This document shows positions 6,108 through 40,198 of a stretch of 64,000 bases of DNA, piece after piece. The stretch is taken from IMG/VR virus record IMGVR_UViG_3300045988_145476; one strand, written 5' to 3'. Source of the stretch: a virus. The position numbers were made by a program, and so were the translations under genes. The stretch's first letter is position 1. Every line of letters begins with the position of its first letter. The notes under the pieces are model-generated. The model saw only the letters and a list, made by a program, of their open reading frames with translations. It did no database searches and was not told the origin of the DNA.

Positions 6108-6119
6108 TAGAATACAGTT

Positions 6120-6560
6120 ATGATTAATGTAACGCCTATTGCTATTGCGGCTACCTCACAGCAGTATGCAGTGAGTATAACCGAGAACTTGTGCCAATGC
6201 TACTGCTTGAACGCAGACATTCAGCCACAAGCAGATGTGAAGTTCTCCATTGCTTCACAGCAAGTTGTTAATGGAATGACCTACATCACCGTTCTCGCTA
6301 AGGGTAGTATTACCTATATGCCGAGAAATGCGGGTAGATGCTGCTGCAAACCTCTTACAAAGATGTTTGCTGAAACATTCGATATTATCTTCGACACAGC
6401 CGAAACCGCAGCTCCGACACTTACTGTTGGAACTACCGTTGAAAGTCCGGCAAATGTGAAGTGTAATGGGAATGTGTTCGCTTACAACTTATTGACACCC
6501 GTAACCATAGCTTTTGCGGCTACTCCCTCTGAGGCTGCGGTTGCGAAGACTAATAAGTAA
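6120..6560 (+). CDS. hypothetical protein with CQCYC and CCC motifs
   Basis: 146-aa ATG ORF containing 'LCQCYCLN' and 'GRCCCKP'. Confidence 0.5.
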   Translation: MINVTPIAIAATSQQYAVSITENLCQCYCLNADIQPQADVKFSIASQQVVNGMTYITVLAKGSITYMPRNAGRCCCKPLTKMFAETFDIIFDTAETAAPTLTVGTTVESPANVKCNGNVFAYNLLTPVTIAFAATPSEAAVAKTNK

Positions 6561-6877
6561 TGTGGGACTTACTACTCATAATGCTAATAGCCGTCCTCTT
6601 TAATCATTTGGGGCTTGCGGATACGGTTACGTTTCATACGAAACGGAACGTGGTCTTGAACTGTTCCAAATGCTTGACTTTTTGGACGTCACTCGGATAC
6701 TCCCTACTGGTATTGCAGTGGGGATGTATTCCGGGTATTGCTGTTTCATTTACTCTATCCTATCTGGCATTATGGGTTGAACTCCTGCTAAATCTCCTCA
6801 ATTTAATTTATACAAAAACGTATGGCAAAATATATCCGTCCGAAACCGGCGAAAGGGATAGTTCCCAGACCGATTAA
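6560..6877 (+). CDS. small membrane protein (about 3 TM)
   Basis: 105 aa. The start overlaps the upstream stop (TAATG). Hydrophobic segments LLLIMLIAVLF, LGYSLLVLQWGCIPGIAVSF and LALWVELLLNLL. Confidence 0.5.
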   Translation: MWDLLLIMLIAVLFNHLGLADTVTFHTKRNVVLNCSKCLTFWTSLGYSLLVLQWGCIPGIAVSFTLSYLALWVELLLNLLNLIYTKTYGKIYPSETGERDSSQTD

Positions 6878-9135: not shown

Positions 9136-9329
9136 GAAATGTAACGAAAATCGCAAAACTTATGAACAGCCGTAGTAGAATGTGCACTATATGCCCACTC
9201 GGAAAGCAAATGAGATGTAACCTTGATATAATGCGGGTATGCTCCGATGCTTTCGTTGAGGGTTTTAAGAAAGGTGTCCAACTTGCGGAGAAAAATCATA
9301 AAGAACATGCTAAAAAAGAGAACGTTTAG
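9132..9329 (+). CDS. small Cys-containing hypothetical protein
   Basis: 65 aa with an ATGA overlap to the upstream gene. Confidence 0.45.
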   Translation: MRNVTKIAKLMNSRSRMCTICPLGKQMRCNLDIMRVCSDAFVEGFKKGVQLAEKNHKEHAKKENV

Positions 9330-9531
9330 AGTTGATTTTCGTGCTTACGAATATACTAAAGGGTATATAGAAATGACCGAAGACTTGGTTTTACCCTATC
9401 GTACAGAAGAACCTTTCACGGAAGAAACTTCTACGGTATTTATTCACGCACGAAAAATTTTGCATGGGATATTGAATACAATCATAGAGATAAAAGGTAT
9501 TTATCCCCTAACCGTTTATGAAGAACTTTAA
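9307..9531 (+). CDS. hypothetical protein
   Basis: I chose the internal ATG at 9307 within ORF 9247-9531. The start is uncertain. Confidence 0.4.
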   Translation: MLKKRTFRVDFRAYEYTKGYIEMTEDLVLPYRTEEPFTEETSTVFIHARKILHGILNTIIEIKGIYPLTVYEEL

Positions 9532-9542
9532 AAGGAGAAAAT

Positions 9543-9944
9543 ATGAAACAGACAGTAGAAGAAGCAGCAAAAGAATATTACGAAAGATACAAAATTCATT
9601 TGGCAAAAGATATATTCAGACCAAGAATAATAGATGTTTTCAAATCCGGTGCCGAATGGCAGGCAAAGCAATCTCCGTGGATAAGCGTTGAGGAACGGTT
9701 GTCAGAAGAGGGGCAAAAAGTTTTTGTTTTGGTGATGTGTTATGGCACACCATGTATTCGAGAAGAAAAGTTTTGTAGAAATAGCAATTTAGATAAAAAG
9801 GGAATGTGGATTCACGGAAACAGTATCGTGCTGGCATGGTTTCCCACCCCCTCTTTCGATGAGATACTCGAAGCCAACAAGGATGTACTTGAACGGATTA
9901 AAGAGAAAGGAGACCGAATACAGACATGCAGCCCAATGAAATAA
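9543..9944 (+). CDS. DUF551-like phage protein
   Basis: 'WISVEERLSEEGQKVFVLV' resembles the DUF551 core (WISVeDrLPe...Vlv). GGAG lies 5 nt upstream of the ATG. Confidence 0.45.
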   Translation: MKQTVEEAAKEYYERYKIHLAKDIFRPRIIDVFKSGAEWQAKQSPWISVEERLSEEGQKVFVLVMCYGTPCIREEKFCRNSNLDKKGMWIHGNSIVLAWFPTPSFDEILEANKDVLERIKEKGDRIQTCSPMK

Positions 9945-10237
9945 TAAATATAATATTGGATAATGGTCATATATCATTGCATAGATACAGTGACAATCCA
10001 AGTGAAATAATATTGTCATCCCTGTTTGTAAGAAAACAAAGACGAAATGGAAACGGAATCAATTTAATGCTTCGTGCAGAACAAATAGCCAAAGGATTAG
10101 GATGTGTCCGTGTATTTCTTGAGGCAAAGAAAGGTAGTTGGCAAGAGAAATGGTATGAACGATTAGGATATAACTACTGTGAATGTTGCCAAGAAAGAAG
10201 CGGACTAATATGGATGAAAAAAAACTTAGACAAATGA
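9926..10237 (+). CDS. GNAT-family N-acetyltransferase (small)
   Basis: 'VRKQRRNGNGINLMLRAEQIAKGLG' fits the acetyl-CoA-binding R/Q-x-x-G-x-G/A motif A. '...WYERLGY' fits motif B. Confidence 0.55.
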   Translation: MQPNEIINIILDNGHISLHRYSDNPSEIILSSLFVRKQRRNGNGINLMLRAEQIAKGLGCVRVFLEAKKGSWQEKWYERLGYNYCECCQERSGLIWMKKNLDK

Positions 10238-10428
10238 AAAGATACAGAATATACAGATACGGACTTTTTGACCACATTTTTGACGTTCAAGTGAAAAAAT
10301 GGTATGGCTGGGTACTTGTTAAGAGGTTTAAGGCAGATATAAGTTCTGATGACACAATGATAGATAATATTTATTATTGTGAAATGTTATCCAAGGAACT
10401 TTTGGAAAAATTGGAGGAGGAATTATGA
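10234..10428 (+). CDS. hypothetical protein
   Basis: The ATG at 10234 forms an ATGA overlap with the GNAT stop. 64 aa. Confidence 0.45.
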   Translation: MKRYRIYRYGLFDHIFDVQVKKWYGWVLVKRFKADISSDDTMIDNIYYCEMLSKELLEKLEEEL

Positions 10429-10847
10429 AATCAAAACAAGTATTATCAGTCGAACAGATGATGCATTTGAAGGAGCTTGGATTGGACACAAGCGATGGAA
10501 GCATGTGTTTCGAGTGGAATGAATCAGATTCAGACAACATGGTTGTAGCCTCTCCGGATGCCGATACGAATTACGACTATTATCATGAAACTTACACTTT
10601 GCAGGACATTCTCGATAAGCTGCCTTGTTTTATTGGCACACATGTACTAACCTTACAGAAGCTTGCAAATAGCGGAACATGTTTATATATGGAGCCTTAT
10701 TCGCGTTCTATATTAAACCTGACAGAGAGTAAGGAACTTATTAATTCAGCCTACGAGATGCTGTGCTGGTGTATTGAAAACAGGTATATTAAAACTAATC
10801 AGTATGAAAGCGAGAATAAAATCAACCGGAGAGATTGTAGAGGTTGA
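10425..10847 (+). CDS. hypothetical protein, paralogue family with 12689 and 23881
   Basis: N-terminal 'LSVEQMMHLKELGLDT', mid 'YTLQDILDKLP' and C-terminal 'INSAYEMLCWCIENRYI' parallel the other two ORFs. GGAGGAGG lies 4 nt upstream of the ATG. Confidence 0.5.
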   Translation: MKSKQVLSVEQMMHLKELGLDTSDGSMCFEWNESDSDNMVVASPDADTNYDYYHETYTLQDILDKLPCFIGTHVLTLQKLANSGTCLYMEPYSRSILNLTESKELINSAYEMLCWCIENRYIKTNQYESENKINRRDCRG

Positions 10848-11094
10848 AGACTTATATGATGATGGGACTGCCTTAGTGAATGGTAGGTATTTCAAAGTGT
10901 CAGAACTCGACTTCTTTGATAATTTTGAAACTATTGATTGGGAGCAAAGGCGTTATGAAATAGCAAAGTCAATGATGGCGGCATTTCTTAGCAATTCATG
11001 CTCAAATGTTTATATGAATACTTATGAAAATCAAGCACAGGAAGCTGTAAAATATGCCGATATGCTTATTGATGAATTGAAGAAAGGAAAATAA
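10804..11094 (+). CDS. hypothetical protein
   Basis: I chose the ATG at 10804 (MKARIKSTGEIVEV...). The start is uncertain. Confidence 0.45.
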   Translation: MKARIKSTGEIVEVEDLYDDGTALVNGRYFKVSELDFFDNFETIDWEQRRYEIAKSMMAAFLSNSCSNVYMNTYENQAQEAVKYADMLIDELKKGK

Positions 11095-11096
11095 TT

Positions 11097-11300
11097 ATGG
11101 AAAACAGAAGAAAGCTGGCAATAGCCAACCTATGTCGTGGATTCCTCCGCATACAAGGATTTCTGACAGATTCAGAAAACAAGAAAATCTATCAACGAAT
11201 ATTGAATTGGCAGGATGAAAATGAGGTTGAAATTACCGAGGAACAACTTCTATCTGCTGATTTTACTTATGATGATAACGCCAAAGAAGAGGAGGAATAA
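11097..11300 (+). CDS. hypothetical protein
   Basis: 67-aa ATG ORF with an acidic C-terminus. Confidence 0.45.
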   Translation: MENRRKLAIANLCRGFLRIQGFLTDSENKKIYQRILNWQDENEVEITEEQLLSADFTYDDNAKEEEE

Positions 11301-11302
11301 CT

Positions 11303-11500
11303 ATGGAAATTAAAAATGGTATAGTAATTAACGGCGAATTTCACGAAGCTATTAAAGTTAATGAACAGGTAATCTCGTGTAATGATTGTTCCCTAAAGCC
11401 AATGTGCTATAAAATTGTGGATAGTCTTTGTGGTATGCTTGACGAAAGTGACAAGTTTGTCAATCGTGGTAAGATAGCAGAATTAAAAGTAGAGGAGTAA
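11303..11500 (+). CDS. small CxxC protein, tandem paralogue A
   Basis: MEIKNGIVINGEFHEAIKV...SCNDCSLKPMC...FVNRGK aligns with the next ORF. GGAGG lies 7 nt upstream. Confidence 0.5.
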   Translation: MEIKNGIVINGEFHEAIKVNEQVISCNDCSLKPMCYKIVDSLCGMLDESDKFVNRGKIAELKVEE

Positions 11501-11505
11501 TAATC

Positions 11506-11724
11506 ATGGAAGTAAAAAACGGAATATTAATTAATGGTGAGCTTCACGAAGGAGTTGAGGAAACTGTTTCTTGTTCTCTTTGCTCTTTGTACAATGTATG
11601 TGCAGAACTTAACTATGCAGTATGTCCTGCCGAAATATTGAGATGCGAGAGTTTTGTCAATCATGGTAAGGTAAAAGTTGAAAAAGAAAGTAACCATGAA
11701 GAAAATATCAATAACGGACTTTGA
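11506..11724 (+). CDS. small CxxC protein, tandem paralogue B
   Basis: MEVKNGILINGELHEGVEE...SCSLCSLYNVC...FVNHGK aligns with the previous ORF. GAGGAG lies 8 nt upstream. Confidence 0.5.
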   Translation: MEVKNGILINGELHEGVEETVSCSLCSLYNVCAELNYAVCPAEILRCESFVNHGKVKVEKESNHEENINNGL

Positions 11725-11896
11725 ATTTAAAGTAACGGGTTACGGACATTATAACGTGACTTACACCAGCCCTGTAACCGGCAAGCAGTGGACAACAGCC
11801 ATTGATGATATGTCAATTATTGACGCTACCAAGAATAACGAAAATCCTAAGAAAAAGGATTTAGAGATGTTGAAATGGATTTGTAAGAACACGTAA
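11696..11896 (+). CDS. hypothetical protein
   Basis: I prefer the ATG at 11696 over the TTG at 11678. 66 aa. Confidence 0.45.
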   Translation: MKKISITDFEFKVTGYGHYNVTYTSPVTGKQWTTAIDDMSIIDATKNNENPKKKDLEMLKWICKNT

Positions 11897-11901
11897 TATA
11901 C

Positions 11902-12093
11902 ATGACTATGATAGCTATGCACCAATGTGAATTTTGTTGTTGGTATGTCGAAAGATATGGAACCTGTGAATGTCCTACTTCTATGAAACGGATTGCATGT
12001 GAAAAAGCTCGTAGAATGAAGAATCGTGTTAATGAGGATAAATGGAAAGAACTTTATGGAAACGAAAAGAAGAACAGCGTACTTCGGGACTAA
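11902..12093 (+). CDS. small Cys-rich hypothetical protein
   Basis: 63 aa, containing 'CEFCCWYVERYGTCECP'. Confidence 0.45.
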   Translation: MTMIAMHQCEFCCWYVERYGTCECPTSMKRIACEKARRMKNRVNEDKWKELYGNEKKNSVLRD

Positions 12094-12421
12094 TGGTTGT
12101 CCCAGACATTATTTTAGTGCTATTTCCGGAGAATTTTCTCCTCAAGAGGAAGAAGAACTTAGTAAGATAGATGAAGACTTTCAGTTATTCGATTTTTTCG
12201 GCTTTAGTTTTTTCTATTACAAAGGGTATGGGTGCCTTTCTTTCTCTGCAAGTCCGGATGATAATCGTCCCGGCAGTAAGACTGTATTTTTTGTTGAGGA
12301 CGTCTGTTTAAAAACAGAGGTGTTAGAGGCTTTGGAAGAATCTCCGTTTGTGAAAAAACAATTCCAGAAGTTAGCCGATATGTATGGTGTAGAAATACCT
12401 AAAATAAAAGATTATGAATGA
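12056..12421 (+). CDS. hypothetical protein
   Basis: I chose the ATG at 12056 within ORF 12026-12421. It overlaps the upstream gene by 38 nt, and the start is uncertain. Confidence 0.4.
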   Translation: METKRRTAYFGTNGCPRHYFSAISGEFSPQEEEELSKIDEDFQLFDFFGFSFFYYKGYGCLSFSASPDDNRPGSKTVFFVEDVCLKTEVLEALEESPFVKKQFQKLADMYGVEIPKIKDYE

Positions 12422-12686
12422 TATAAAACTATCACTCCGGCAAATAGAAAAAATGGAACATGCTATCGGATTTAGCCGTGAGAAAATAAAAAGAAATAGA
12501 TATGAGGCTTATCGTAATAGATTTGTAGTAAGTAACTCCGATAAGGACTGGGAGGAATTGGTATCTATCGGATATGCAGAAAAGCGAGAGTTTGAGATTG
12601 AAAAACAAATCGGGTACTATGTTTCCGAACTTGGGATGAAATATTTAGGGGTGTTATTTGGGTGTATAATAATAGAAAGTAAATAA
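12414..12686 (+). CDS. hypothetical protein
   Basis: 90-aa ATG ORF. Confidence 0.5.
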   Translation: MNDIKLSLRQIEKMEHAIGFSREKIKRNRYEAYRNRFVVSNSDKDWEELVSIGYAEKREFEIEKQIGYYVSELGMKYLGVLFGCIIIESK

Positions 12687-12688
12687 CT

Positions 12689-13090
12689 ATGACCGAAGAA
12701 CTTGTAACATTAGAAACAGCGAAGCTGCTGAAAGATAAGGGCTTCAATAGGAAGTGTGAACACCTAATAGACCGCAATAAGGTTATTACAAAATATGACC
12801 TTCCGCAAAGTATGTCGTGTTGTACGGAAATAGATGGCGAATCAGTTGAATTTTTGTGTCCAACATTGTATATCGCCCAAAAGTGGCTGCGTGAAATAAG
12901 AGGTGTGTATGTATATGTAGAACCTGTTATTGGAAAAAGATGGAAGCTTTCTTTTTGTGATTTCAATGTTCCAACAGAAGAAAGCGACTGGATGGAGAAC
13001 GAAATAAACAAAGGGAATGGCTATAAAGTATATGTCACCTACGAGGAAGCACTGGAAGCCGGAATACAAGAAGTATTAAAACTTATATAA
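12689..13090 (+). CDS. hypothetical protein, paralogue family with 10425 and 23881
   Basis: 'LETAKLLKDKGF' at the N-terminus and 'YEEALEAGIQEVLKLI' at the C-terminus parallel 23881 (YETAKKLNAIGF ... STALKEGVDYLIEKL). Confidence 0.5.
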   Translation: MTEELVTLETAKLLKDKGFNRKCEHLIDRNKVITKYDLPQSMSCCTEIDGESVEFLCPTLYIAQKWLREIRGVYVYVEPVIGKRWKLSFCDFNVPTEESDWMENEINKGNGYKVYVTYEEALEAGIQEVLKLI

Positions 13091-20413: not shown

Positions 20414-21088
20414 ATGCTGGACAAATCAAAAACGGACCCGAAGTTAGGTAGGGAAATCCACCAACTTCTACATGACACAGGAATCGAAACCCCTATGATA
20501 GACTCAACGTTTCAGACCGAATCTGAAAAGTTTACCGCCATACGGGACAGCTTTAAGACTATCATGCAAACTCTTGGAATGGACTTGACCGATGATAGCC
20601 TTTCGGAAACCCCAAATCGTATTGCCAAGATGTACCTCAACGAAATATTTTGGGGTCTTGATTACAACAACTTCCCGAAAGTAACCACCATAGACAATAA
20701 GATGCAGTATAATTCCATGCTGCTGGAAAGAAACATAAAAGTTTCTTCATTCTGTGAGCACCACTTTGTGAACTTTGTAGGCAGTGCGTATGTTGCTTAC
20801 ATCCCGCACGGGAAAATAATCGGTTTGTCAAAGATAAACCGCATTGTTGAGTTCTTCTGCCGCAGGCCACAAGTGCAGGAACGCCTGTGTGAACAAATAT
20901 GGGCGGCTCTCTGCCATGTACTTGAAACCGAAGACATTGCCGTTCTTATTCGTGCAGAACATTTCTGCGTTAAGTCAAGAGGAGTTGAGGATATTAATTC
21001 CGATACGGTTACTTCCCGTTTGGGCGGTTTGTTCTATGACAGTGAGCAAAGGGACGAGTTTTATAAGGTACTCAACTTTGGTGTATGA
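20414..21088 (+). CDS. folE: GTP cyclohydrolase I
   Basis: 'SFCEHHFVNFVGSAYVAYIPHGKIIGLSKINRIVEFFCRRPQVQERL' contains the FolE hallmark motifs CEHH, GLSK and RPQVQERLT. Confidence 0.9.
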   Translation: MLDKSKTDPKLGREIHQLLHDTGIETPMIDSTFQTESEKFTAIRDSFKTIMQTLGMDLTDDSLSETPNRIAKMYLNEIFWGLDYNNFPKVTTIDNKMQYNSMLLERNIKVSSFCEHHFVNFVGSAYVAYIPHGKIIGLSKINRIVEFFCRRPQVQERLCEQIWAALCHVLETEDIAVLIRAEHFCVKSRGVEDINSDTVTSRLGGLFYDSEQRDEFYKVLNFGV

Positions 21089-24261: not shown

Positions 24262-24619
24262 AGTATTAAGGCAAGCACTGAACGCCTTATTTTATCTCTG
24301 CTCTCTAATAGGATTCATGCAGTTCTTATCTCTTATAATGTTTCCTCACTTGAGATTGGTTGTTCTCATACTTATTGCCGTTGGAATTTTCCTATGGTGT
24401 ATTATCTATGCTGTGGAAACCCCAAGCCAGTATTACTACTATGTGGTCGCACAAGTAGAGGGGAAATTCTTATATACTCGAATAAAGTCCGAAAAGGAGC
24501 TTACCTATTGGGGAGCCACTGAACTAATTTCGAGGGAAAGGGAACTCGCTTATCCTATTATCGTTATTAACATGCAAAGAATAACCGAAGAAGAATATAA
24601 CTCCGTATATTTTCCCTAA
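24248..24619 (+). CDS. membrane protein (2 TM)
   Basis: 123 aa. Hydrophobic segments LFYLCSLIGFMQFLSLIMF and LVVLILIAVGIFLWCIIYAV. Confidence 0.5.
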   Translation: MKYAKVLRQALNALFYLCSLIGFMQFLSLIMFPHLRLVVLILIAVGIFLWCIIYAVETPSQYYYYVVAQVEGKFLYTRIKSEKELTYWGATELISRERELAYPIIVINMQRITEEEYNSVYFP

Positions 24620-25014
24620 TGCTTAGCCCCTTGCAAATTCGGATGCTTAAAGGACTTGTTTGCCCTTATTGTCACCGACCCACCCAGCTTGTAGACAGTT
24701 CCGAAGTGTATGGCCGTTCTTATGGTATGATTTATTTGTGTAGACCTTGTAATGCGTACGTGGGATGCCACCAAGGAACGACCAACGCTTTGGGACGTGT
24801 CGCAAATGCTGAATTGAGGATAGCCAAAAAGTTGGCGCATGAAAAGTTTGACCCGTTATGGAGAAACGGTTACATGACAAGGCATGAAGCGTACAAGTGG
24901 TTGTCTGACAAATTAGGAATCCCTGCCGAATATACCCATATAGGAATGTTTAATGTGGACACTTGTCACAAAGTTGTTTCCCTTTGTATAAATTATCTTC
25001 AAGAAAAGTTATGA
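24619..25014 (+). CDS. DUF3268-like zinc-finger protein
   Basis: 'CPYCHRPTQLVDSSEVYGRSYGMIYLCRPCNAYVGCHQGTTNALGRVANAELRIAKKLAHEKFDPLW' matches the DUF3268 zinc-ribbon pattern as I remember it. Confidence 0.6.
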   Translation: MLSPLQIRMLKGLVCPYCHRPTQLVDSSEVYGRSYGMIYLCRPCNAYVGCHQGTTNALGRVANAELRIAKKLAHEKFDPLWRNGYMTRHEAYKWLSDKLGIPAEYTHIGMFNVDTCHKVVSLCINYLQEKL

Positions 25015-25708: not shown

Positions 25709-25740
25709 TTTGGTTTTGTCGTTCCGATAGACTATATTTG
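25709..25740 (+). promoter_or_regulatory. consensus Bacteroides-type promoter (TTTG-N20-TAtaTTTG)
   Basis: TTTG at 25709-25712 and TATATTTG at 25733-25740, 29 nt upstream of the dps ATG. Confidence 0.6.
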
Positions 25741-25769
25741 TGGTGTTGTACAACTTAAAAGATTTGATT

Positions 25770-26222
25770 ATGGTAACTATTCAAGAAGAAACAGCAGTTA
25801 AAATGCGCAGCTTGCTTGCGTCTTTGACAGTGTTTTATCAAAAGACCCATGTATATCACTGGGATTTGGTCGGTAGAAGTTTCAATCAGCTCCATGCGTT
25901 CTTCGAGGAACTCTATAATGAGGCGGTGAAAAATACCGATGCAGTCGCAGAACGTTTACGACAGGCAAATATACGTACTAACCTATCGTTGACGGAAGCG
26001 GTAAGACTTTCCGGAGTAGAAGATGACGTATCTGCCGAGAGTGACGAGGAAATGGTAACTGATTTGATACGTTCTCTGGCAATATTAACTGCCTTGCAAA
26101 CGGAAATATTCATGGAAGCCAATGATGCAAACGATTATGTAACGGCTGACCTAATGACCCAGCTAACCAAACAGGCCGATTTCAATAGTTGGTTCTTGAC
26201 CTCTTGGAAAGAAAACAGATAG
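25770..26222 (+). CDS. dps: Dps / ferritin-like DNA-binding protein
   Basis: 'FYQKTHVYHWDLVGRSFNQLHAFFEELYNEAVKNTDAVAERLRQ' matches the Dps signature (hvyHWnv.G..F..lH..fee.y.e....D.iAERi). I prefer the ATG at 25770 over the GTG at 25740. Confidence 0.8.
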   Translation: MVTIQEETAVKMRSLLASLTVFYQKTHVYHWDLVGRSFNQLHAFFEELYNEAVKNTDAVAERLRQANIRTNLSLTEAVRLSGVEDDVSAESDEEMVTDLIRSLAILTALQTEIFMEANDANDYVTADLMTQLTKQADFNSWFLTSWKENR

Positions 26223-26392
26223 TGAAAAAACAGTTTTTGTGTGTTAGTTTAATTCATTCAGTTAAGAATAGCGGTTCCCGTAGGTTATTTAGTAATGTTT
26301 CGTTTCGTATTAGTAGTAAATTGAAATGCACAGGATTTGCGTCCTTATAGACCAAGCGAGGTCGAACTATTGGAATTAGTTATTCGGTAAAG

Positions 26393-26422
26393 AGAGTGGC
26401 TTGTGAAAGTCGCTCTTTTTTC
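26393..26422 (+). terminator. rho-independent terminator
   Basis: AGAGTGGC (26393-26400) pairs with GTCGCTCT (26409-26416), giving 8 bp including two G-U pairs. A T6 run follows at 26417-26422. Confidence 0.55.
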
Positions 26423-26872
26423 TGCCTTGTCAGAACGAAAAACGGGTAAATTTATCTCTGAAACTAAGACAACCTCATTTTTCTATTTTAAAAAGACCAA
26501 TTTTTACCCTCTTCCAACAGATACTATCCACATGCAGGAAAAATTTCCTTTTTTGCAGGGAAAATCTTCCCTTTTCCATAGAAATAACATAACTGCCTAA
26601 CTAAGCTAACCAATAGAAAGTGTAGGGTAAACCGTACTTCTTTAAGTAATTACGTATGAACGCTCCCAAAAGAAAACAGATTCGCGGCTGAATGTTTTCT
26701 GTACTCTATAATACTTAATACTATATAATACTACATAAAAGATATATGTGGTGGGTTTCTCTCAAATTACGTAAACTCATGTGGTGGGTAATGGGTAGAT
26801 AGGTAGAAAAGAAAGGTTATTGTAGATACCGATAGAAAATGGCCCTACGCATACGTGTAGACGTGGTTGTGG

Positions 26873-27072
26873 GCTTATTCTAATTAGCTATTTACGGCAA
26901 TAAGCATTATTTTCCATGCGTAATTAGCGTTATTTACTGCGTGTAATTAGCTATTTTCTCTCTGTACGAGCGTTTATTTTAATTAGAAACGCAGTTATTT
27001 TAATTAGAAATACGCTTATTCTAACTGGAAATAGGTTTATTTTTCTGTGCAAATAAGCTATTTTAGGCGAAA
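26873..27072 (+). repeat. iteron-like array built on TTATT(N)TAATTAG(A/C)(A/T)A
   Basis: Core motifs at 26980 (TAATTAG), 27001 (TAATTAG) and 27022 (TAACTGG) are phased exactly 21 bp apart, each ending in GAAA. Degenerate units lie on both sides, including TAATTAG at 26881, 26921 and 26944. Confidence 0.75.
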
Positions 27073-27207
27073 TTTCCATAGATGTTTACAAAAACGCCTA
27101 TTTTTTAATTTAAGCCGATATTGATTATCAGATAGTTAGCAAAAAATCTCCTATGAAAGTATAAAAAACGCAGATTTAGAAATATTTTTACTTTCTAATT
27201 AGATTTT

Positions 27208-27223
27208 GGTTATTGCAATAACC
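27208..27223. repeat. perfect 16-bp palindrome GGTTATTGCAATAACC
   Basis: Read directly. Related GGTTATTG half-sites lie at 26815-26822, 28084-28098 (GGTTATTGTAATAAC) and 28147-28154 (reverse complement). Confidence 0.9.
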
Positions 27224-27428
27224 ACAACTACGTATGTAGATAACCAGTTACGCAGTAGAATTGGTGGTTTATTATGTGTAATTAGTATATAGCTGTATGT
27301 AACTATATGTAATTACCGCAGATTTATTATATAACTACCGGATTAATTGTTCCTGCGTGTTATTTTTCCGTATTAATTAAGTAGGAAATATATTATATAG
27401 AGTAATTGGGAGTTATTTTATTTATCGT

Positions 27429-27681
27429 ACGGCGAAAAATTTAATTTTTGGCGGGATAATTTCTAATTAGCGTATTATAATAAGTAATTAATCACCGTAA
27501 TAAGGAAAGATTTTATTCTCCGTGCGGATTATTCGTATTATCTACGGGAATATTATATGAATTTCTAACTGGAAACCTTTTTACGGCGGAAAATTAAGTA
27601 GTAATTATATTAGTTAGCGTATAAAGCGAAAAACAATTCGGCGAATTTTTAATTTACGGCGGGATAATAGTACGTAGCGTA
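27429..27681 (+). repeat. three copies of a composite ~40-45-bp repeat (CGGCG-A/T run-GGCGGGATAAT-TAGCGTA)
   Basis: R1 27429-27474, R2 27583-27621 (degenerate) and R3 27639-27681. GGCGGGATAAT occurs at 27450 and 27658. TAGCGTA occurs at 27468, 27615 and 27675. Confidence 0.7.
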
Positions 27682-28171
27682 GACAGGATTTCAGTTCACG
27701 GAGCTGAATTTACTGGCAGGGGGGTACCCTTAAATGGAATGCGGCGCACGGTCGGCTTGGGGTAGTACGGTTAGGTAAGAAAGGAGTGGTGGAAAGTCGG
27801 ACAATAATTAGTGTATATATGATAACTTCGGAAGTTTGTGTATGTGTGGTAACTTTGGTGGATACGGGTGGTGTGCGTGTGAAAATCGGTGGTAACGGGT
27901 GAAAAACGGGTGATTTGGAAATGTACTTGAAAATACAGGGTGCGGTTGACGTTTGGTGTGGAAATAAATTGCCGGAAGTTTGGAGTTCTCACTAAATATT
28001 AGTATATTAATATATAATTACTTGTATATAGTACTATGAAAGATATAGTGTCCGGATGTTTGGGATGCTTATCGGTCGGTTATGGTTATTGTAATAACTG
28101 GTAGTCGGTACGGTGGTATTTCCGTTAAATAATGTTATTATATAAACAATAACCAAATATTTTACCGGATA

Positions 28172-28207
28172 TGTTTGGTTATCTTATATAAAGTAACTAT
28201 ATTTGTA
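28172..28207 (+). promoter_or_regulatory. consensus promoter inside 36-bp repeat copy 1
   Basis: TGTTTGGTTATCTTATATAAAGTAACTATATTTGTA. TTTG at 28174-28177, N20, TATATTTG at 28198-28205. It is identical to 30727-30762. Confidence 0.7.
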
Positions 28208-28270
28208 ATGTGAAAAACGAAACGCACCTATCGGTATATTGCTGACGGGTAACCAGAAAATCCTACGACA

Positions 28271-28462
28271 ATGAAAACGAAAGAAATCAAGAAGCAACTC
28301 GAAATGATGTACAATTTCTATGAAGCGGATGCGCAGCTCTGTGCGATGGCTGACATGAACTACAATTGGGGAATGCATATCGAACAGGGGTACCAAATAA
28401 TCTCTGAGCGATTAGGAGTCAGTGTTGACGAAGTAAGAAGCGTTGACGAATGTTGTGAATAA
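28271..28462 (+). CDS. hypothetical protein
   Basis: 63-aa ATG ORF, first gene after the promoter. Confidence 0.5.
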   Translation: MKTKEIKKQLEMMYNFYEADAQLCAMADMNYNWGMHIEQGYQIISERLGVSVDEVRSVDECCE

Positions 28463-28476
28463 AAAGCATAAGGACT

Positions 28477-29019
28477 ATGGAACGAAACGAATTAATCATG
28501 GAGATACACAAATGTTCTCCGATGTATCCAGTTAAGAAGTTGCAGCAGATGAATGACGACACGCTGGCTAATCTCTACAAGTGGACGTGCAAACCTGCGA
28601 AAGTGGTAAAGGACGACCGTCTTTATTCCCAATCGGGAGACGTGGTGAAAGTAAAGGAAACGTATGAGGAGAAATGCGGTGAGTTGCTTGACCCGTACGA
28701 CCCGGATTATCTGAGCACGTCCCCTACGAAGGACGACCCTATCTCCCCTTATGAGAAACGGTTCCTGCATAAGGTGTCTATCTTGCAGAACAAGTTGCGC
28801 AGGGAAGGCGTTTCCGCTGACTGGGACGAGTACCGCCAGTGTTTCCGTGTCGCAAGGTACATAAGTTCGTACCCGACTTATCGGTATGTGCGGGTGAACT
28901 TGGACGAGAACGACTATTCGTTCGGTGACGAAAAGGACGATTTCTTTTGGGACGGTAAAGTATCTGCCGTGGTTGCGGAAGTGAAAAAATGGGTGAACGC
29001 CAAACTTATCAAAAAATAA
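28477..29019 (+). CDS. hypothetical protein
   Basis: 180-aa ATG ORF in a GC-richer region. The long antisense shadow ORF is judged spurious. Confidence 0.6.
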   Translation: MERNELIMEIHKCSPMYPVKKLQQMNDDTLANLYKWTCKPAKVVKDDRLYSQSGDVVKVKETYEEKCGELLDPYDPDYLSTSPTKDDPISPYEKRFLHKVSILQNKLRREGVSADWDEYRQCFRVARYISSYPTYRYVRVNLDENDYSFGDEKDDFFWDGKVSAVVAEVKKWVNAKLIKK

Positions 29020-29025
29020 AACGCT

Positions 29026-29223
29026 ATGAAAAGGATATGTGATTTTATACACGGACGGTTCGGACGCAAAGTTTTGAAACCGGGTTACAGGGAAATATGG
29101 GTTCGCACGATGTATTGCCTGCTGCTCGTAATCGGAGTACTGGCTATGGCGGTGGTCGTGCAAGTGTGGAGCTGGCTGGTCGGTTTCCTTAATGCGATGG
29201 CTTGGGGGACTACGGTATGGTGA
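29026..29223 (+). CDS. small membrane protein
   Basis: 65 aa. Hydrophobic segments 'MYCLLLVIGVLAMAVVVQVWSWLVGFL'. Confidence 0.45.
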   Translation: MKRICDFIHGRFGRKVLKPGYREIWVRTMYCLLLVIGVLAMAVVVQVWSWLVGFLNAMAWGTTVW

Positions 29224-29981
29224 CTATCGGTATATTCGGCAGGGAGTACAGGTTTTGTCGCAGTGTGAAGGCCTCTTACAGTGACCGGCATAATCGTGCG
29301 GTGAAACTTGCGGAAAGGTTCGAGAGCCTGTCCGAGAAGTTTGACGGTATGTTCAGTAGGGGCGGTTGCGGTGAGACGCTCAATTCCCGTCTGGCGCTTG
29401 CCTGCAAGATGATGATGTACACCGGCATCCGTATCGGTAACGAGGGAAGTGCCGAGGGGTATATGACTAAACCGCACCCCAATTCCAAGGAACAGCCCCA
29501 GTTCGTGCAGACGTACGGCCTTACCACGCTTCTTCCCCAGCACATGAGTATCAGACGTGGGAAAGTGTACCTTAACTTTCTTGGTAAGAGACGTGTGGAC
29601 AACAGCTTTGTACTTGACGGTAAACTCGCAGGACAGGTTAGGGACATGTCCGGGTATATCTCCGAGGGGGAAACCCTTTTCGAGATTACTTCCTACGAAC
29701 TTACCAAGTTCATAAAGAAGTATGTGGGCAGACAGTTTACCCCGAAGGACTTCCGTACCATGAGGGCTAATATGTACGCATGGGAAAAGTTCGAGGAGAT
29801 ATGCGAAAGGGAGCTGCCCAGTACCAAGACCGAGTATAACGGAGAGGTTAAGGAAATCGCCACTTATGTCAGCGAGAAACTCAACAATACTCCGGGTGTA
29901 TGTAAGAAAAGCTATATTGATGAACTGCTTTGGGACGAGTTCAGTGACGCCCGTCCCGTAACTAAAAGGAATAAAAAATGA
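29217..29981 (+). CDS. type IB DNA topoisomerase (compact, bacterial/poxvirus-like catalytic domain)
   Basis: All five catalytic-pentad contexts are recognisable: 'TGIRIGNE' (Arg), 'YGLTTL...LNFLGKRRV' (Lys), 'FTPKDFRTMRAN' (Arg), 'LNNTPGV' (Asn/His position) and 'CKKSYI' (Tyr). I prefer the ATG at 29217 over the TTG at 29202. Confidence 0.8.
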   Translation: MVTIGIFGREYRFCRSVKASYSDRHNRAVKLAERFESLSEKFDGMFSRGGCGETLNSRLALACKMMMYTGIRIGNEGSAEGYMTKPHPNSKEQPQFVQTYGLTTLLPQHMSIRRGKVYLNFLGKRRVDNSFVLDGKLAGQVRDMSGYISEGETLFEITSYELTKFIKKYVGRQFTPKDFRTMRANMYAWEKFEEICERELPSTKTEYNGEVKEIATYVSEKLNNTPGVCKKSYIDELLWDEFSDARPVTKRNKK

Positions 29982-30298
29982 ATAAACAAGAAGCTATCCA
30001 ATGGATGTTGCGTGGCGCAAGGCTCACGCACAAGTATTTCTCCTCTGACGAATGGGTTACTATCGGTGAGGACGGTCTTATCGAACTCGAAGACGGGGTG
30101 AGGTGTACCCCCGCTGAATTTTGGTCGTGCCGCAGTGGAGAATGTTTTGAGACGGGGTGGGATTTTGTAAGCTCCCCCGATGTATATACGTGTATTGCCG
30201 CAAGGGAGTTCAACTGTGCGGTTGAGGATGTTTCCCCTCTTGAGCGGGCATGTATGAAAAGCAAATATTTCGTTTTTATGTATAATTCTAAAAGATAA
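29978..30298 (+). CDS. hypothetical protein
   Basis: 106 aa with an ATGA overlap to the topoisomerase stop. 'EAIQWMLRGARLTHKYF...EW' is only loosely DUF2829-like. Confidence 0.5.
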   Translation: MNKQEAIQWMLRGARLTHKYFSSDEWVTIGEDGLIELEDGVRCTPAEFWSCRSGECFETGWDFVSSPDVYTCIAAREFNCAVEDVSPLERACMKSKYFVFMYNSKR

Positions 30299-30303
30299 AT
30301 GTT

Positions 30304-30657
30304 ATGGGTATTCATTTAAGTAAAAAACACGGGGTAAACCCAAGTATAGAAATTTGTGCCGTTTGCGGTAAGGGAATTGGAGTTGCATTACTCGGTAGGT
30401 TAAAGAATGATGCAGAGGCTCCCGGAGAAGTGTGCCTTGGAAATCTTTGTGACACTTGTCAGGGTGTAGTTGATGCCGGCGGTACCCTTATCATAGAGAC
30501 TGTTGACGGTGAACCATGCAGTAAGAACCCTACCCGTACGGGGCGTATCGTTGGTATCACGCACGAAGCCGCTGAAAGGCTCTTCCATAGTCACGCACCC
30601 GTTGCCTATATGGTACATACCGACTTTACAAATATATTCGGAGAATCATTCAATTAG
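30304..30657 (+). CDS. hypothetical protein with two CxxC pairs
   Basis: 117 aa, with 'CAVCGKG' and 'CDTCQG'. Confidence 0.5.
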   Translation: MGIHLSKKHGVNPSIEICAVCGKGIGVALLGRLKNDAEAPGEVCLGNLCDTCQGVVDAGGTLIIETVDGEPCSKNPTRTGRIVGITHEAAERLFHSHAPVAYMVHTDFTNIFGESFN

Positions 30658-30726: not shown

Positions 30727-30762
30727 TGTTTGGTTATCTTATATAAAGTAACTATATTTGTA
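30727..30762 (+). promoter_or_regulatory. consensus promoter inside 36-bp repeat copy 2
   Basis: Identical 36-mer to 28172-28207, lying 29 nt upstream of the ATG at 30792. Confidence 0.7.
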
Positions 30763-36945: not shown

Positions 36946-37482
36946 ATGGCTACAATTACAAGAGCGTTTGAGTTCGACGCAGCACATCGTGTAATGAATG
37001 AGAAAGTAAAATGCTTCAATTTGCACGGGCACCGTTTTAAAGTGGAAATGACTTTTGAGTATAACTCCAAGAGTCTTCTTGGATACGCTATTGACTTTAA
37101 GGAGATAAAGCGTATTGCCTGCGGATATATTGATGAACATTTAGACCACGCTTGCCTACTTAACCCCGAAGATACCGAGCTTATTGAGCTGTGCAGAAAA
37201 CAAAACTGGCGTCTGTGGGTTATGGGAATGGGTGTGTATGGTGACATCAACCCGTCTGCGGAGAATATTGCTTCCGAGCTTTTCTATATTATCAGACAGT
37301 TATTCATTAATGAGCCTTGCGGTTTGCGTCTTACAAACTTACGGCTGTATGAGACACCGAATTGCTGGGTTGATTGTTCCCGCATTGATTATGTGGCTAC
37401 AAATATGTTCCTTGAGAATCTTGGTACATGGAGAAAACAAAAGGGTTCAATGAAGTACGACATAAGAGAAGACCATGAGTAA
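36946..37482 (+). CDS. queD: 6-carboxy-5,6,7,8-tetrahydropterin synthase (QueD/PTPS family)
   Basis: 'FEFDAAHRV...KCFNLHGHRFKVEMTFE' contains the QueD Cys-x3-His-Gly-His zinc/catalytic motif. 'DFKEIK' is typical. It overlaps the terL start by 8 nt. Confidence 0.85.
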   Translation: MATITRAFEFDAAHRVMNEKVKCFNLHGHRFKVEMTFEYNSKSLLGYAIDFKEIKRIACGYIDEHLDHACLLNPEDTELIELCRKQNWRLWVMGMGVYGDINPSAENIASELFYIIRQLFINEPCGLRLTNLRLYETPNCWVDCSRIDYVATNMFLENLGTWRKQKGSMKYDIREDHE

Positions 37483-40198
37483 AAAGAAAAAAATAACGCC
37501 TAAAGAAGAAGGATACGTATTTCCTACCGAGGGTGGTAGAATCGAAGACATCCACACCGAAGAACTTGCGGGTAAATCGGTATCGTTTGACGCACACGAA
37601 ATCACTTCCAAGATTATAGAGTTCGGTAAAATACTTACCGGACTTTCTTTGTATAAATACCAAGAAGAAGCGGTGTATGCGATTATTTATTCTATCATAA
37701 CTTTTTCCGGCGATGTGAAAACAATGCTTTTCAGTCGTCAATCAGGTAAATCGGAAGCTATGGCTTTTGTTATTGATACGCTTACCGTATTACTTCCGGC
37801 CCTTGCCAAAGTGATACCCGATTTGGAGCAATTCTCCAGCGGTTTCCGTATCGGATTGTTTGCTCCGCAATCAGACCAAGTTGTTACTACCTATTCTCGT
37901 GCAATGACCCGTATAAATTCGGCTAATGCGGAGATGGTTCTTAGTGACCCAGATATTGACGTGTACTTAGAAAGTTCCGCCCGTCTTGAACTTTCAAACG
38001 GTTCTTATCTTGCCGGACAGGTTGCGAGTAAACAGTCCAAGATTGAATCAAAGACGTATGATTTGGTAATAGTCGAAGAGGCACAGGACGTTGACGACCT
38101 TATTGTTCAGAAATGTTATGCTGAGGATACTTTAATAAATTTGCCCTATGGAGATTATGCCACTATTAAAGATGTGGTTGAGAGAAAACTTCCCGTGTTA
38201 ACTCCAGAGGGAAAAATGAAACCGTCTGCATGGCATAATACGGGTGTTCAGGGTGTTTATAAAATCACATTATGCAACGGCAGGGAGCTTGAAGTAACTT
38301 CTCAACATAGACACTTGGTTAGACGTAGGAATGTTAAGGAGTCTTTTGAACTTCATACAGATAAACTAAAAGTTGGTGATAGACTTGCTGTTCCCGATTT
38401 TATTCCGACATTCGGACATTATGGTGACTATTCTATGGGAGTAGTTATCGGTTTTTTGCTTGGTGACAGATGCTTTAGCGGAAGTCAAGTGCAGTTCTGC
38501 GGTTTTGAAGAAGTTTGGAATTTCGTTTCCCCTCATGTGGAAAAACTCGGCTGTGTTGCTTTTACCAATTGCTTTAATAAAAACGGTTTATATGAGGGTA
38601 CTTTCCGAAACGTTGATGGAAAAAATACTCCTAATAAAATAATTGGTCTTTTGAAAGATTTAGGTCTTTGGGGATTAAAAGGAGAGAATAAGTTTATACC
38701 TAATTTACCCTACTCTAAAGAGTTTCTTGTAGGCCTTATTTGCGGACTATTTGAAAGTGATGGAAGTGTACAGGCTCTTAAAAAGGGTAACATACGATAT
38801 GCGTCAATTTCTAAGAAGTTGGTTTATGGTTTAAGCCTTCAATTGCAAAAGTTTGGAATACACTGCTCTATATCTGTAAAGAGTAACATTGGTAAAGGAG
38901 TGTATGAAAATACCAAGCCCTTATATGAATTGCATATTAGGGATAACATTTCGGTTATACGTTTTTGTGAGAATTTTCGCCTTGTAACAAAAAATGAGAA
39001 GCTCGATAAGGCTAAGTTAATTGCTGAAAGAATTAATAAGAAAGCCGGAGCTACTAAGGTATATGATGGTAACAGATATGTAAGAATCAAGTCTATTGAA
39101 TACACAGGTGAAAAACAGACCTATTGTGTAACGGTTCCTACCGAGGGGCATTGGATAATCGCTAACGGAATTGTAAGTGGTAACTCAATAGAACCTATGT
39201 TATCTGCCACTGGTGGAACACTTATAAAGGTAGGAACTACTGGTATGGTTAAAAACCATTTTTGGTATGAGATACAACATAACAAGAATATTGACCGGAA
39301 AATAGTAGACCCCCGTATAAAGAATCATTTCGAGTATGACTACAAGCGTATTATCCATGACCGTAGACTTCAATACGATATAGACCATAAACGTTTCCAC
39401 CTTAACTATGAAGCGGATATTCAACGTAAAAAGGAACGTTGGGGTGAAGACTCACAAGCTTTCAAACTCGCTTATGCGCTTATTTGGGACTTAGAAAGCG
39501 GTATGCTTCTTTCCGATAAGGAGTACAACGGTATCATAAACAGGAAACTCGGTTTGCAAGATGCCCGTAATGAGGATTACGTGGTTGCCGGCCTTGATAT
39601 TGGTAAGCATCCTGCCGAAACGGTTCTTACTATTGTCAAGGTATTCCACGGTGAAGATGTATTCGACCGACCGTATAAACAGATACTTGCGTGGGCTTGT
39701 CTTGGTGGTCTTGATTATGAGAGCCAGCATCATGTGATAATGGATTTTATTGTAGAGTTTAATATTTCTGTTATCTTTGCGGATTATACGGGTGTCGGTA
39801 AGCCAGTTGTTGACCGTCTTATGTATGCCTGCGGAGAGTATGTGACAATAGAACCTTATACGTTCACCGCACAAAGCAAATCGGATATGTGGTTTAACTT
39901 CCTTTCCGATATACAGACCCACCACCTTATTGTACCGGCCAATAAGAAGACCCGTATGACACCGGAGTACATGAAGTTTGAGGAGCAAATGAAAAATTGC
40001 CAGAAGTACTATAATGGGACATATTTGGTATGTGAAAAGAGTGAGGGTTACTTTGATGATATGGTAGACAGTTGTGCCCTTGCTTGCATGGCCGCTACTT
40101 ATGAACAGGAAGTAAAGGAAGAAATGGAAGTTACTCCGAATCCTTTGTATGAAGGAGTAACAAGTACCATACAAGCGATAAGAAGACATTCATTTTAA
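37475..40198 (+). CDS. terL: terminase large subunit, interrupted by an intein
   Basis: Walker A 'LFSRQSGKSE' and Walker B 'YDLVIVEEAQ'. The C-terminal half has the size and layout of a nuclease domain. It is followed directly by the portal gene. The 907-aa length is explained by a 357-aa insertion. Confidence 0.9.
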   Translation: MSKKKKITPKEEGYVFPTEGGRIEDIHTEELAGKSVSFDAHEITSKIIEFGKILTGLSLYKYQEEAVYAIIYSIITFSGDVKTMLFSRQSGKSEAMAFVIDTLTVLLPALAKVIPDLEQFSSGFRIGLFAPQSDQVVTTYSRAMTRINSANAEMVLSDPDIDVYLESSARLELSNGSYLAGQVASKQSKIESKTYDLVIVEEAQDVDDLIVQKCYAEDTLINLPYGDYATIKDVVERKLPVLTPEGKMKPSAWHNTGVQGVYKITLCNGRELEVTSQHRHLVRRRNVKESFELHTDKLKVGDRLAVPDFIPTFGHYGDYSMGVVIGFLLGDRCFSGSQVQFCGFEEVWNFVSPHVEKLGCVAFTNCFNKNGLYEGTFRNVDGKNTPNKIIGLLKDLGLWGLKGENKFIPNLPYSKEFLVGLICGLFESDGSVQALKKGNIRYASISKKLVYGLSLQLQKFGIHCSISVKSNIGKGVYENTKPLYELHIRDNISVIRFCENFRLVTKNEKLDKAKLIAERINKKAGATKVYDGNRYVRIKSIEYTGEKQTYCVTVPTEGHWIIANGIVSGNSIEPMLSATGGTLIKVGTTGMVKNHFWYEIQHNKNIDRKIVDPRIKNHFEYDYKRIIHDRRLQYDIDHKRFHLNYEADIQRKKERWGEDSQAFKLAYALIWDLESGMLLSDKEYNGIINRKLGLQDARNEDYVVAGLDIGKHPAETVLTIVKVFHGEDVFDRPYKQILAWACLGGLDYESQHHVIMDFIVEFNISVIFADYTGVGKPVVDRLMYACGEYVTIEPYTFTAQSKSDMWFNFLSDIQTHHLIVPANKKTRMTPEYMKFEEQMKNCQKYYNGTYLVCEKSEGYFDDMVDSCALACMAATYEQEVKEEMEVTPNPLYEGVTSTIQAIRRHSF
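38114..39184 (+). mobile_element. intein with LAGLIDADG homing-endonuclease domain
   Basis: Starts with Cys ('QK|CYAEDTLINLP'). Block B is 'VTSQHRH'. Two LAGLIDADG motifs: 'VVIGFLLGDRCF' and 'LVGLICGLFESDGSV'. Ends 'HWIIANGIVSGN|SIEP' with a +1 Ser. 1071 nt, in frame. Confidence 0.85.

Follow-up and report, generated by a model that had tools for sequence, protein, structure and literature searches.

Introduction

Type IB topoisomerases (TopIB) are textbook enzymes of eukaryotes, poxviruses, and some bacteria. They form a covalent 3'-phosphotyrosyl intermediate, let the cut duplex swivel, and religate the strand, relaxing supercoils of both signs without ATP. Here we describe a TopIB gene in a 64,000-nucleotide stretch of viral DNA (IMG/VR record IMGVR_UViG_3300045988_145476), called the window below. 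Judged from its sequence and a structural model, its product is likely to be a catalytically competent minimal TopIB that serves as an ATP-independent swivelase in phage replication and transcription.

The vaccinia enzyme, with 314 amino acid residues, has been called "the smallest topoisomerase known" (PMC2666729). In the poxvirus enzymes, the N-domain residues Gln69, Tyr70, and Tyr72 read the CCCTT target site (PMC2666729), and fragments of the vaccinia and Pseudomonas enzymes that lack the N-domain still relax DNA, with lower efficiency and weaker target binding (PMC2666729, citing Cheng and Shuman 1998). The bacterial TopIBs carry Asn in place of His at the fourth position of the catalytic pentad, such as Asn280 in Deinococcus and Asn283 in Pseudomonas (PMC2666729).

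The window protein is 100% identical to the product of a gene annotated "top1E, DNA topoisomerase, DNA topoisomerase 1B" in Bacteroides phage BS162P1 (OP172706.1; 88,902 bp; host B. salyersiae; isolated from municipal sewage), and with this pre-existing GenBank annotation the identification as TopIB is not new. Literature searches on BS162P1, phage TopIB, and crAss-like topoisomerases found no paper describing a phage TopIB or BS162P1, the candidate papers dealing with topoisomerases II and IV, and a conserved core TopIB of a Bacteroides phage clade widespread in the human gut and sewage is thus annotated in GenBank with no study found in the literature. What sets the enzyme apart is its natural architecture, consisting of the catalytic domain only, in a core gene of a gut-phage clade.

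Identification of the Type IB Topoisomerase

The protein matches the Pfam family PF01028 (Topoisom_I) over residues 24-230, corresponding to profile positions 12-201 of 228, with an E value of 1.3e-14 and 54.6 bits against a gathering threshold of 23.7. When the PDB was searched with phmmer, the Deinococcus radiodurans TopIB (2f4q/3m4a) was the best match (E 2.7e-8) and the variola and vaccinia enzymes followed at about 1e-3; a family profile gave 3.8e-15 for Deinococcus and 2.7e-10 for variola/vaccinia, and matched the Caldiarchaeum enzyme as well. The AlphaFold2 model, built from 33 homologs, has a predicted local distance difference test score (pLDDT) of 86.1 and a predicted template modelling score (pTM) of 0.83. 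The 22 best Foldseek matches of this model in the PDB are all TopIBs, from variola, Deinococcus, human, Leishmania, and Caldiarchaeum, with a probability of 1.00, a best E value of 2.4e-8, and TM-scores normalised to the query of 0.5-0.67. Topoisomerases of poxviruses, giant viruses, and jumbo phages head the matches among the viral structures of BFVD. A sequence-only reading of this DNA had proposed a phage-encoded TopIB, and the tests set for it in advance returned a significant hidden Markov model match (PF01028) together with structural matches to TopIB.

The tyrosine recombinases and telomere resolvases have an ancestral catalytic fold and tyrosine-phosphoryl chemistry in common with TopIB, but the motif contexts found here (IRIGN, GK, KDFRT, NTP, and SY) are those of TopIB. 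A tyrosine recombinase was rejected as the identity of the protein: Pfam gave no recombinase match, and XerH and Cre appeared in Foldseek only at E values of about 0.08 or worse (at least 0.075), versus 2.4e-8 for TopIB. Telomere resolvases (TelK, TelA, and ResT) were rejected as well, none being present in the top 50 PDB fold matches or among the sequence matches.

Compared with the described enzymes, the bacterial TopIBs, such as DraTopIB (2f4q/3m4a) and PAT of Pseudomonas aeruginosa, provide the best PDB sequence match and have the catalytic fold and the Asn-type pentad in common with the phage protein. However, they are 310-350 residues long and possess an N-domain of ~90-100 residues (Top1B_N_bact, with IPPAW and GRxQYxY motifs) that is absent from the phage protein, which in turn carries an extra invariant insertion of ~14 residues after the first Arg and is only ~25-35% identical to them. 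The poxvirus TopIBs (vaccinia/variola, 314 residues; 1a41, 2h7f, and 3igc), which are also virus-encoded, provide the top structural matches (E about 2.5e-8) and correspond in the pentad residue for residue. They utilize His265 and an 80-residue N-domain, whereas the phage enzyme has Asn, keeps at most the terminal Tyr of that domain (Tyr21), and is 60 residues shorter. The only hints at the donor lineage are the ranking of Deinococcus above the poxvirus and the archaeal/eukaryal TopIBs when sequences are searched, the Asn at pentad position four, and the presence of Top1B_N_bact in the nearest long homologs.

TopIB-like proteins are also found in unrelated jumbo phages of Proteobacteria. Those of Pseudomonas phage PaBG (562 residues) and Achromobacter phage Motura (541 residues) have the TopIB fold (BFVD E values of 4e-7 to 5e-6), but they are twice as long and only ~15% identical to the window protein in the structural alignment. 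In Xanthomonas and Erwinia phages of ~228 kb, proteins annotated "topoisomerase" are tblastn matches to bacterial-type TopIB at ~26% identity. We know of no jumbo-phage TopIB-like protein that has been characterized biochemically. Searches of PHROGs and NCBIfam with the window protein gave no matching family; phrog_23460, a profile of 565 positions, matched only weakly (E 0.057) and may be the PaBG-type family.

Active Site

The five pentad contexts quoted in the earlier reading are present at residues 71 (IRIGN), 121 (FLGKRRV), 177 (KDFRT), 222 (LNNTPGV), and 230 (KKSYI), and the putative catalytic Tyr, Arg, and Lys residues align with those of TopIB in HMMER and hhalign (Table 1). The vaccinia sequence used for hhalign agrees with the known length, with the residue numbering in the literature, and with the part of 1a41 shown in the HMMER alignment. 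The spacing between Asn224 and Tyr233 is the same as that between His265 and Tyr274 in vaccinia.

Arg72, Lys124, Arg180, Asn224, and Tyr233 are invariant in 33 homologs at 58-74% identity. Among 149 other representatives of clusters at 50% identity, the pentad reads RKRNY in 84 and RKRHY in 30, the remaining ones being fragments or local alignments that do not span all five positions; where both the first Arg and the Tyr positions are aligned, RKR(N/H)Y is found in 114 of the 115 representatives. Because the pentad is invariant in the homologs and kept across the aligned representative clusters, the catalytic residues are evidently under strong purifying selection. The same pattern bears on whether the gene is what remains of a bacterial TopIB gene that has decayed and lost its function, as the truncation of the protein relative to every characterized TopIB might indicate. 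The open reading frame (ORF) is intact, many positions besides the pentad are invariant over the 33 sequences, the pentad is kept wherever it is aligned among the 149 clusters, the gene is the best conserved of its neighbourhood, and the fold is confidently predicted. A remnant is thus extremely improbable, and on this conservation it appears effectively refuted.

Compact Architecture

That a separate N-terminal domain is lacking, as the earlier reading had noted, is borne out by both domain and profile searches. The Pfam profile PF21338 (Top1B_N_bact) gave no match to the window protein even at E<=1, though fusion homologs and some long homologs do match it. In a profile-profile comparison by hhalign with 12 full-length bacterial-type homologs and vaccinia (probability 100%, E 9.6e-43), the alignment begins at Tyr21, facing the conserved terminal Tyr of the canonical N-domain (Tyr72 in vaccinia). 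DSSP assigns two hairpin strands to residues 2-6 and 9-13 of the AlphaFold2 model and places the helices of the catalytic domain from residue 24 onward; hhalign leaves residues 1-20 unaligned and so gives no correspondence between the 2-13 hairpin and the final hairpin of a canonical N-domain. Residue 72 is the first of the catalytic Arg residues, which in vaccinia stands at position 130.

Between this Arg and the TYGLTT strand lies a family-specific insertion of ~14-15 residues, which stands opposite a gap in vaccinia and bacterial-type TopIB in the hhalign comparison. The region is rich in invariant residues, including Glu80, Gly81, Tyr82, Thr84, Pro86, Pro88, Ser90, Phe96, and Val97.

The nearest counterparts of this architecture are the vaccinia fragment Topo(81-314) and the P. 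aeruginosa fragment PATCAT(99-333), which consist of the catalytic domain without the N-domain, are nearly identical to the phage protein in architecture, and are active in relaxation (PMC2666729). However, these fragments are laboratory truncations with less efficiency and weaker DNA binding, whereas the phage protein is a naturally selected form. Unlike them, it has its own hairpin and internal insertion, both of which might compensate for the lost N-domain.

The missing domain might instead be supplied in trans, the phage protein being one subunit of a two-part topoisomerase whose N-terminal or cap function resides in g28477, g29026, or g30304, the ORFs around it (Table 1). The model for such an arrangement is the Leishmania TopIB, which is heterodimeric. 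The genes g28477 and g29026 are syntenic with TopIB, have the same atypical GC content at third codon positions (GC3), and are translationally coupled to it, and the model of g28477 shows with confidence, in its C-terminal half, a five-stranded β-meander with flanking helices. Yet g28477 has no Pfam domain, and its model (pLDDT 77) finds no significant match in the PDB (best E 0.54) and no TopIB chain in the top 50; it is absent beside the compact TopIBs of contigs L032-L038, whose proteins are equally short, and g29026 resembles a small membrane protein. With nothing TopIB-like found on modelling and fold searching, g28477 was rejected as the source of the N-domain, and we consider a two-subunit enzyme very unlikely.

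Proposed Function

By analogy with the established TopIB mechanism, Tyr233 would attack one strand of the duplex to give the 3'-phosphotyrosyl intermediate, the cut duplex would swivel, and the strand would be religated, with positive and negative supercoils relaxed without ATP. The enzyme would do so essentially as a catalytic domain alone, the clamp-closing and major-groove-reading N-domain being reduced to a hairpin of ~20 residues. We expect the phage enzyme to be active because the engineered vaccinia and Pseudomonas fragments without the N-domain still relax DNA, but probably with a weaker or different sequence preference.

The most likely role would be to relieve the torsional stress generated by replication and co-directional transcription, and possibly by packaging. 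This is the most economical role because nearly all genes are co-directional: all large ORFs of the window are on the plus strand with a monotonic GC skew, and in the other half of the GenBank record all but one annotated coding sequence (CDS) are on one strand. Among the annotations in the rest of the record are a helicase and a DNA polymerase, but no other topoisomerase.

Several points weigh against a competent swivelase with this role. The role itself is drawn from the habit of the family and the genome architecture rather than from evidence specific to this phage, nearly all tailed phages manage without TopIB, which leaves the selective advantage to this clade unexplained, and most of the GenBank record carries no annotation, which leaves room for a second topoisomerase. 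Lacking the clamp domain, the enzyme may bind DNA only weakly by itself and require a partner. In the model, the loop of Lys124 (residues 123-127) has a pLDDT below 50, so the modelled active-site geometry is uncertain, and the insertion region (residues 71-100) is poorly modelled with a pLDDT of ~65.

If active, the protein would be the smallest natural topoisomerase known and a natural experiment on whether a clamp domain is needed for controlled rotation and site choice. It would also offer a convenient pared-down system for the study of TopIB mechanics and might yield a compact relaxase reagent. Since BS162P1 is cultured and its host is known, genetics and biochemistry are feasible. The question raised is why a clade with probably 7-deazaguanine-modified DNA needs its own swivelase, unlike nearly all tailed phages.

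Distribution and Synteny

TopIB is not a standard function of tailed phages, as the sequence-only reading had held: PHROGs contains no matching family, and TopIB-like tblastn matches occur in 7 of 50,697 deposited phage records. With the window protein as query, BS162P1 and an uncultured 485-kb phage are the only records matched; five Xanthomonas/Erwinia phages of ~228 kb come in when a bacterial-type TopIB serves as query. TopIB is rare in deposited phage genomes but not unprecedented.

Metagenomes contain many more relatives. A word-indexed search found 365 clusters, and the 120 homologs listed all contain PF01028 and are 244-272 residues long, many of them on contigs of 77-89 kb. An exhaustive search found 2,466 clusters at 50% identity with E<=1e-3, including 53 with E<=1e-30. 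About 100 of the best 150 clusters are forms of 220-280 residues that align end to end, and 62 of the 115 evaluable representatives have their first catalytic Arg between residues 65 and 80. In IMG/VR, relatives at 27-73% identity are present on 37 viral contigs, some of which are 105-245 kb long. A pattern scan of 185,579 species genomes gave one match, on a 5.8-kb contig of a Patescibacteria metagenome-assembled genome; patterns of the compact family find close relatives only.

The crAss-like phages also carry a compact TopIB. On a 226-kb IMG/VR contig (L033), a 38%-identical compact TopIB at 5980-6792 lies ~1.2 kb upstream of a gene for a 1572-residue protein (8002-12717) with a Crassvirus muzzle-protein domain (E 6.6e-36); we assign the contig to the crAss-like phages because of this adjacent muzzle-protein gene, so that TopIB stands there beside a virion gene. 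Longer forms occur as well. Some compact-type TopIB domains are embedded in giant proteins (L032, 4324-7458; L035, 5980-8274; P0140, P0145, and P0229), TopIB-bearing proteins of 1000-1044 residues end in a C-terminal DUF5754, and a 764-residue form has a long C-terminal extension. In one protein of 1701 residues, Top1B_N_bact and TopIB are joined to pentapeptide repeats, a methyltransferase, and a zeta-toxin/AAA kinase.

In ~25 related viral contigs, TopIB occupies the same position, with an identity of 52-73% versus 33-50% for its neighbours. The fullest gene order, found over ~18 related loci, is a Dps-like gene, a long gap, g28477, g29026, TopIB, g31414, g31788, several genes, PTPS, and the large terminase (TerL); the remaining relatives of the clade have TopIB upstream of g31788 with fewer neighbours kept. 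When relatives were sought through TerL, independently of TopIB, each of the five close ones (TerL identity at least 70%) proved to carry TopIB 8-10 kb upstream, while the relatives with TerL near 30% showed no TopIB in the available flank. A 59%-identical TopIB in the same layout, gap included, is found on contig L056 (GCA_015471965.1, BNJU01000003.1). This synteny, the high conservation, and the presence in the TerL-found relatives and L056 argue that TopIB belongs to the conserved core of a Bacteroides phage clade whose genomes measure ~77-89 kb. L056 is 238,388 bp long, almost exactly three times the 78-79 kb genomes of its TopIB subclade, and may be a concatemeric assembly rather than a larger genome or a prophage.

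The earlier reading had placed the gene in a putatively acquired cassette. Recent acquisition was ruled out by the synteny and conservation in the ~25 contigs and the TerL-found relatives, the gene being better conserved than its neighbours. The block is rich in GC3, equally so in diverged relatives, a real compositional trait that probably prompted the earlier reading. Specifically, g28477, g29026, and TopIB (28477-29981) have a GC content of 0.48-0.50 and a GC3 of 0.58-0.62, versus ~0.40 in the rest of the window, and the same GC3 offset is seen where TopIB is only 52-60% identical. The high GC3 of these three genes is thus old and has been maintained; it does not point to a recent insertion and could stem from a transfer long ago or from selection on codons in highly expressed genes.

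Gene Block and Predicted Promoters

TopIB belongs to a compact block of six genes (28271-30657) immediately downstream of the one large intergenic region, and the block is bounded by two identical, predicted host-type promoter elements (Table 1). The TopIB start overlaps the stop of g29026 (ATGGTGA), and its stop overlaps the ATG of g29978 (ATGA). The ATG at 29217 is the start in most homologs and in the GenBank record, whereas a TTG at 29202 would prepend five residues (MGDYG), as in homolog P0054. A Pfam search found no domains in g28271, g28477, g29026, g29978, or g30304. The high GC3 and the synteny with TopIB are common to g28477 and g29026 across the clade, g29026 looks like a small membrane protein, and g30304 is kept in several relatives.

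Table 1. Positions of the TopIB gene, its functional residues, and the neighbouring features in the window.
Feature	Position	Strand	Remarks
AT-rich non-coding gap, ~2 kb	26223..28270		Upstream of the TopIB block; iteron-like and inverted repeats
Promoter candidate, Bacteroides-type, TTTG-N20-TATATTTG	28174..28205	+	Upstream of the six-gene block with TopIB
g28271 (63 aa), g28477 (180 aa), g29026 (65 aa, hydrophobic)	28271..29223	+	Co-oriented ORFs upstream of TopIB
TopIB CDS	29217..29981	+	254 aa plus stop; intact ORF; GenBank BS162P1_00004 / WAX08783.1
N-terminal hairpin region, residues 1-21	29217..29279	+	Replaces the canonical N-domain of 70-135 aa; Tyr11 invariant
Arg72 codon	29430..29432	+	Corresponds to Arg130 of vaccinia (first catalytic Arg); IRIGN aligned with IRFGK by hhalign
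Residues 76-97 (EGSAEGYMTKPHPNSKEQPQFV)	29442..29507	+	Hold the family-specific insertion of ~14-15 aa between the first Arg and the TYGLTT strand
Lys124 codon	29586..29588	+	Corresponds to Lys167 of vaccinia (general acid); aligned with 2h7f and 1a41 by HMMER
Arg180 codon	29754..29756	+	Equivalent to vaccinia Arg223; HMMER and hhalign alignments
Asn224 codon	29886..29888	+	Equivalent to vaccinia His265 and Deinococcus Asn280; HMMER alignments
Tyr233 codon	29913..29915	+	Nucleophile, equivalent to vaccinia Tyr274; HMMER and hhalign alignments
g29978 (106 aa), g30304 (117 aa, Cys-rich)	29978..30657	+	ORFs downstream of TopIB, reaching to the second promoter copy
Second, identical promoter-like copy	30729..30760	+	Marks the end of the TopIB gene block

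The two elements lie within a 36-nucleotide exact repeat (28172-28207 and 30727-30762) that contains TTTG-N20-TATATTTG. The pattern TTTGN{19,21}TANNTTTG occurs 11 times in the window against 1.2 expected (~9-fold), a count reached in none of 100 shuffles. The plus-strand copies stand just upstream of genes, with further sites at 3237, 20362, 25709, 41816, 48855, and 60348. The pattern fits the Bacteroides promoter consensus, TTTG at -33 and TAnnTTTG at -7. These copies suggest that the host RNA polymerase transcribes across the phage genome, and the TopIB block would be expressed from such a host-type promoter, the activity of which is predicted from the pattern.

Noncoding Gap

The gap upstream of the block contains four iteron-like direct repeats of 21 nucleotides at 26972-27065 and several inverted repeats, including one at 28127-28204. 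Its position is kept in all 11 related loci examined, but of its sequence only the promoter-like element is conserved. Both ends of the GenBank record lie within it, position 1 of the record corresponding to window position 27390. The gap is a candidate for an origin or a genome-end region.

Such a setting raises the alternative, also touched on in the earlier reading, of a site-specific enzyme instead of a general relaxase. It would nick and rejoin, or recombine, sequences in this gap, for example at an origin or a terminus, to resolve concatemers or telomeres, or for recombination, in the manner of the tyrosine recombinases and telomere resolvases that have this catalytic fold. The catalytic fold is common to the tyrosine recombinases, with XerH, Cre, and phage integrases among the weak fold matches, TopIB always stands 0.4-2 kb downstream of the positionally conserved gap with its iteron-like and inverted repeats, and the poxvirus TopIB is itself strongly site-specific (PMC2666729). 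However, the strong sequence and fold matches are all topoisomerases, the recombinases being at least six orders of magnitude weaker, and the top 50 fold matches include no telomere resolvase. The N-domain strand that makes most of the base-specific contacts in poxviruses (Gln69, Tyr70, and Tyr72) is largely missing, and the gap shows no conserved sequence among the relatives beyond the promoter-like element. No signal of site specificity emerged from CCCTT, the poxvirus/Deinococcus target, which is not enriched, with 102 sites versus 120.8 +/- 11.3 expected and only two in the gap, although site counts cannot reveal the specificity of an enzyme. A terminase and a portal are present for conventional packaging. 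Taken together, we judge a site-specific enzyme decidedly improbable compared with a general relaxase.

Predicted DNA Modification

ORFs of a 7-deazaguanine (queuosine-precursor) pathway are located at 28-855, 905-1660, 2524-3243, 20414-21088, and 36946-37482. The pathway members are a QueE-like radical SAM protein, GTP cyclohydrolase I, PTPS/QueD directly upstream of TerL, and a TGT/DpdA-like protein. Two adjacent ORFs match the N- and C-terminal parts of the profile of the queuine tRNA-ribosyltransferase PHROG and may be one DpdA/TGT-like gene split in two. In L056, genes for GTP cyclohydrolase I and PTPS stand at the corresponding places. This gene set is consistent with the modified genome surmised in the earlier reading and suggests that the phage DNA is modified with 7-deazaguanine.

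The modification leads to a bolder reading, which we consider rather unlikely as a whole. The phage proteins of ~250 residues would form a natural "mini-TopIB" class, smaller than the vaccinia enzyme and without the N-domain that reads the major groove; because 7-deazaguanine alters the major-groove face at position 7 of guanine, the loss of this domain in the present clade may be an adaptation to modified DNA. The hairpin and the insertion after Arg72 would then replace the clamp as a new minimal DNA-binding element, and the enzyme would either work on its own modified genome or tell modified phage DNA from unmodified host DNA.

A target in the host is also conceivable, TopIB being a host-takeover or counter-defence factor that relaxes or nicks the host chromosome, so as to shut down supercoiling-dependent host transcription or provoke recombination, while the modified phage DNA is spared or handled differently. 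Expressed in E. coli, vaccinia TopIB is deleterious and recombinogenic; the 7-deazaguanine pathway is present both in this phage and in the 59%-identical relative L056, the block stands behind a predicted host-type promoter, and its unusually high GC3 could reflect strong expression. However, compact TopIBs are also found in unrelated phage lineages (the crAss-like L033 and the contigs of 105-245 kb), and a general relaxase role covers the same observations more simply, so that we regard an action on the host as unlikely.

Other Features of the Window

The large terminase (37475-40198, 907 residues) contains an insertion of 332 residues (214-545; ~38114-39109) that is absent from all 15 relatives and matches the Pfam families Intein_splicing (47.7 bits, gathering threshold 35.8) and LAGLIDADG_3. 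By these domain matches, the insertion is an intein with a homing endonuclease, and a PHROG "DNA primase" match at TerL residues 254-443 is probably this intein. In the relative L045, a different insertion of ~960 nucleotides is located near TerL residue 867.

The last gene before the gap (25740-26222) encodes a ferritin/Dps-like protein (PF00210, E 1.7e-15) and is kept in relatives at 50-54% identity; at the corresponding position, L056 has a protein with a "Sequestin" domain. A DUF3268 zinc-finger protein is encoded at 24619-25014.

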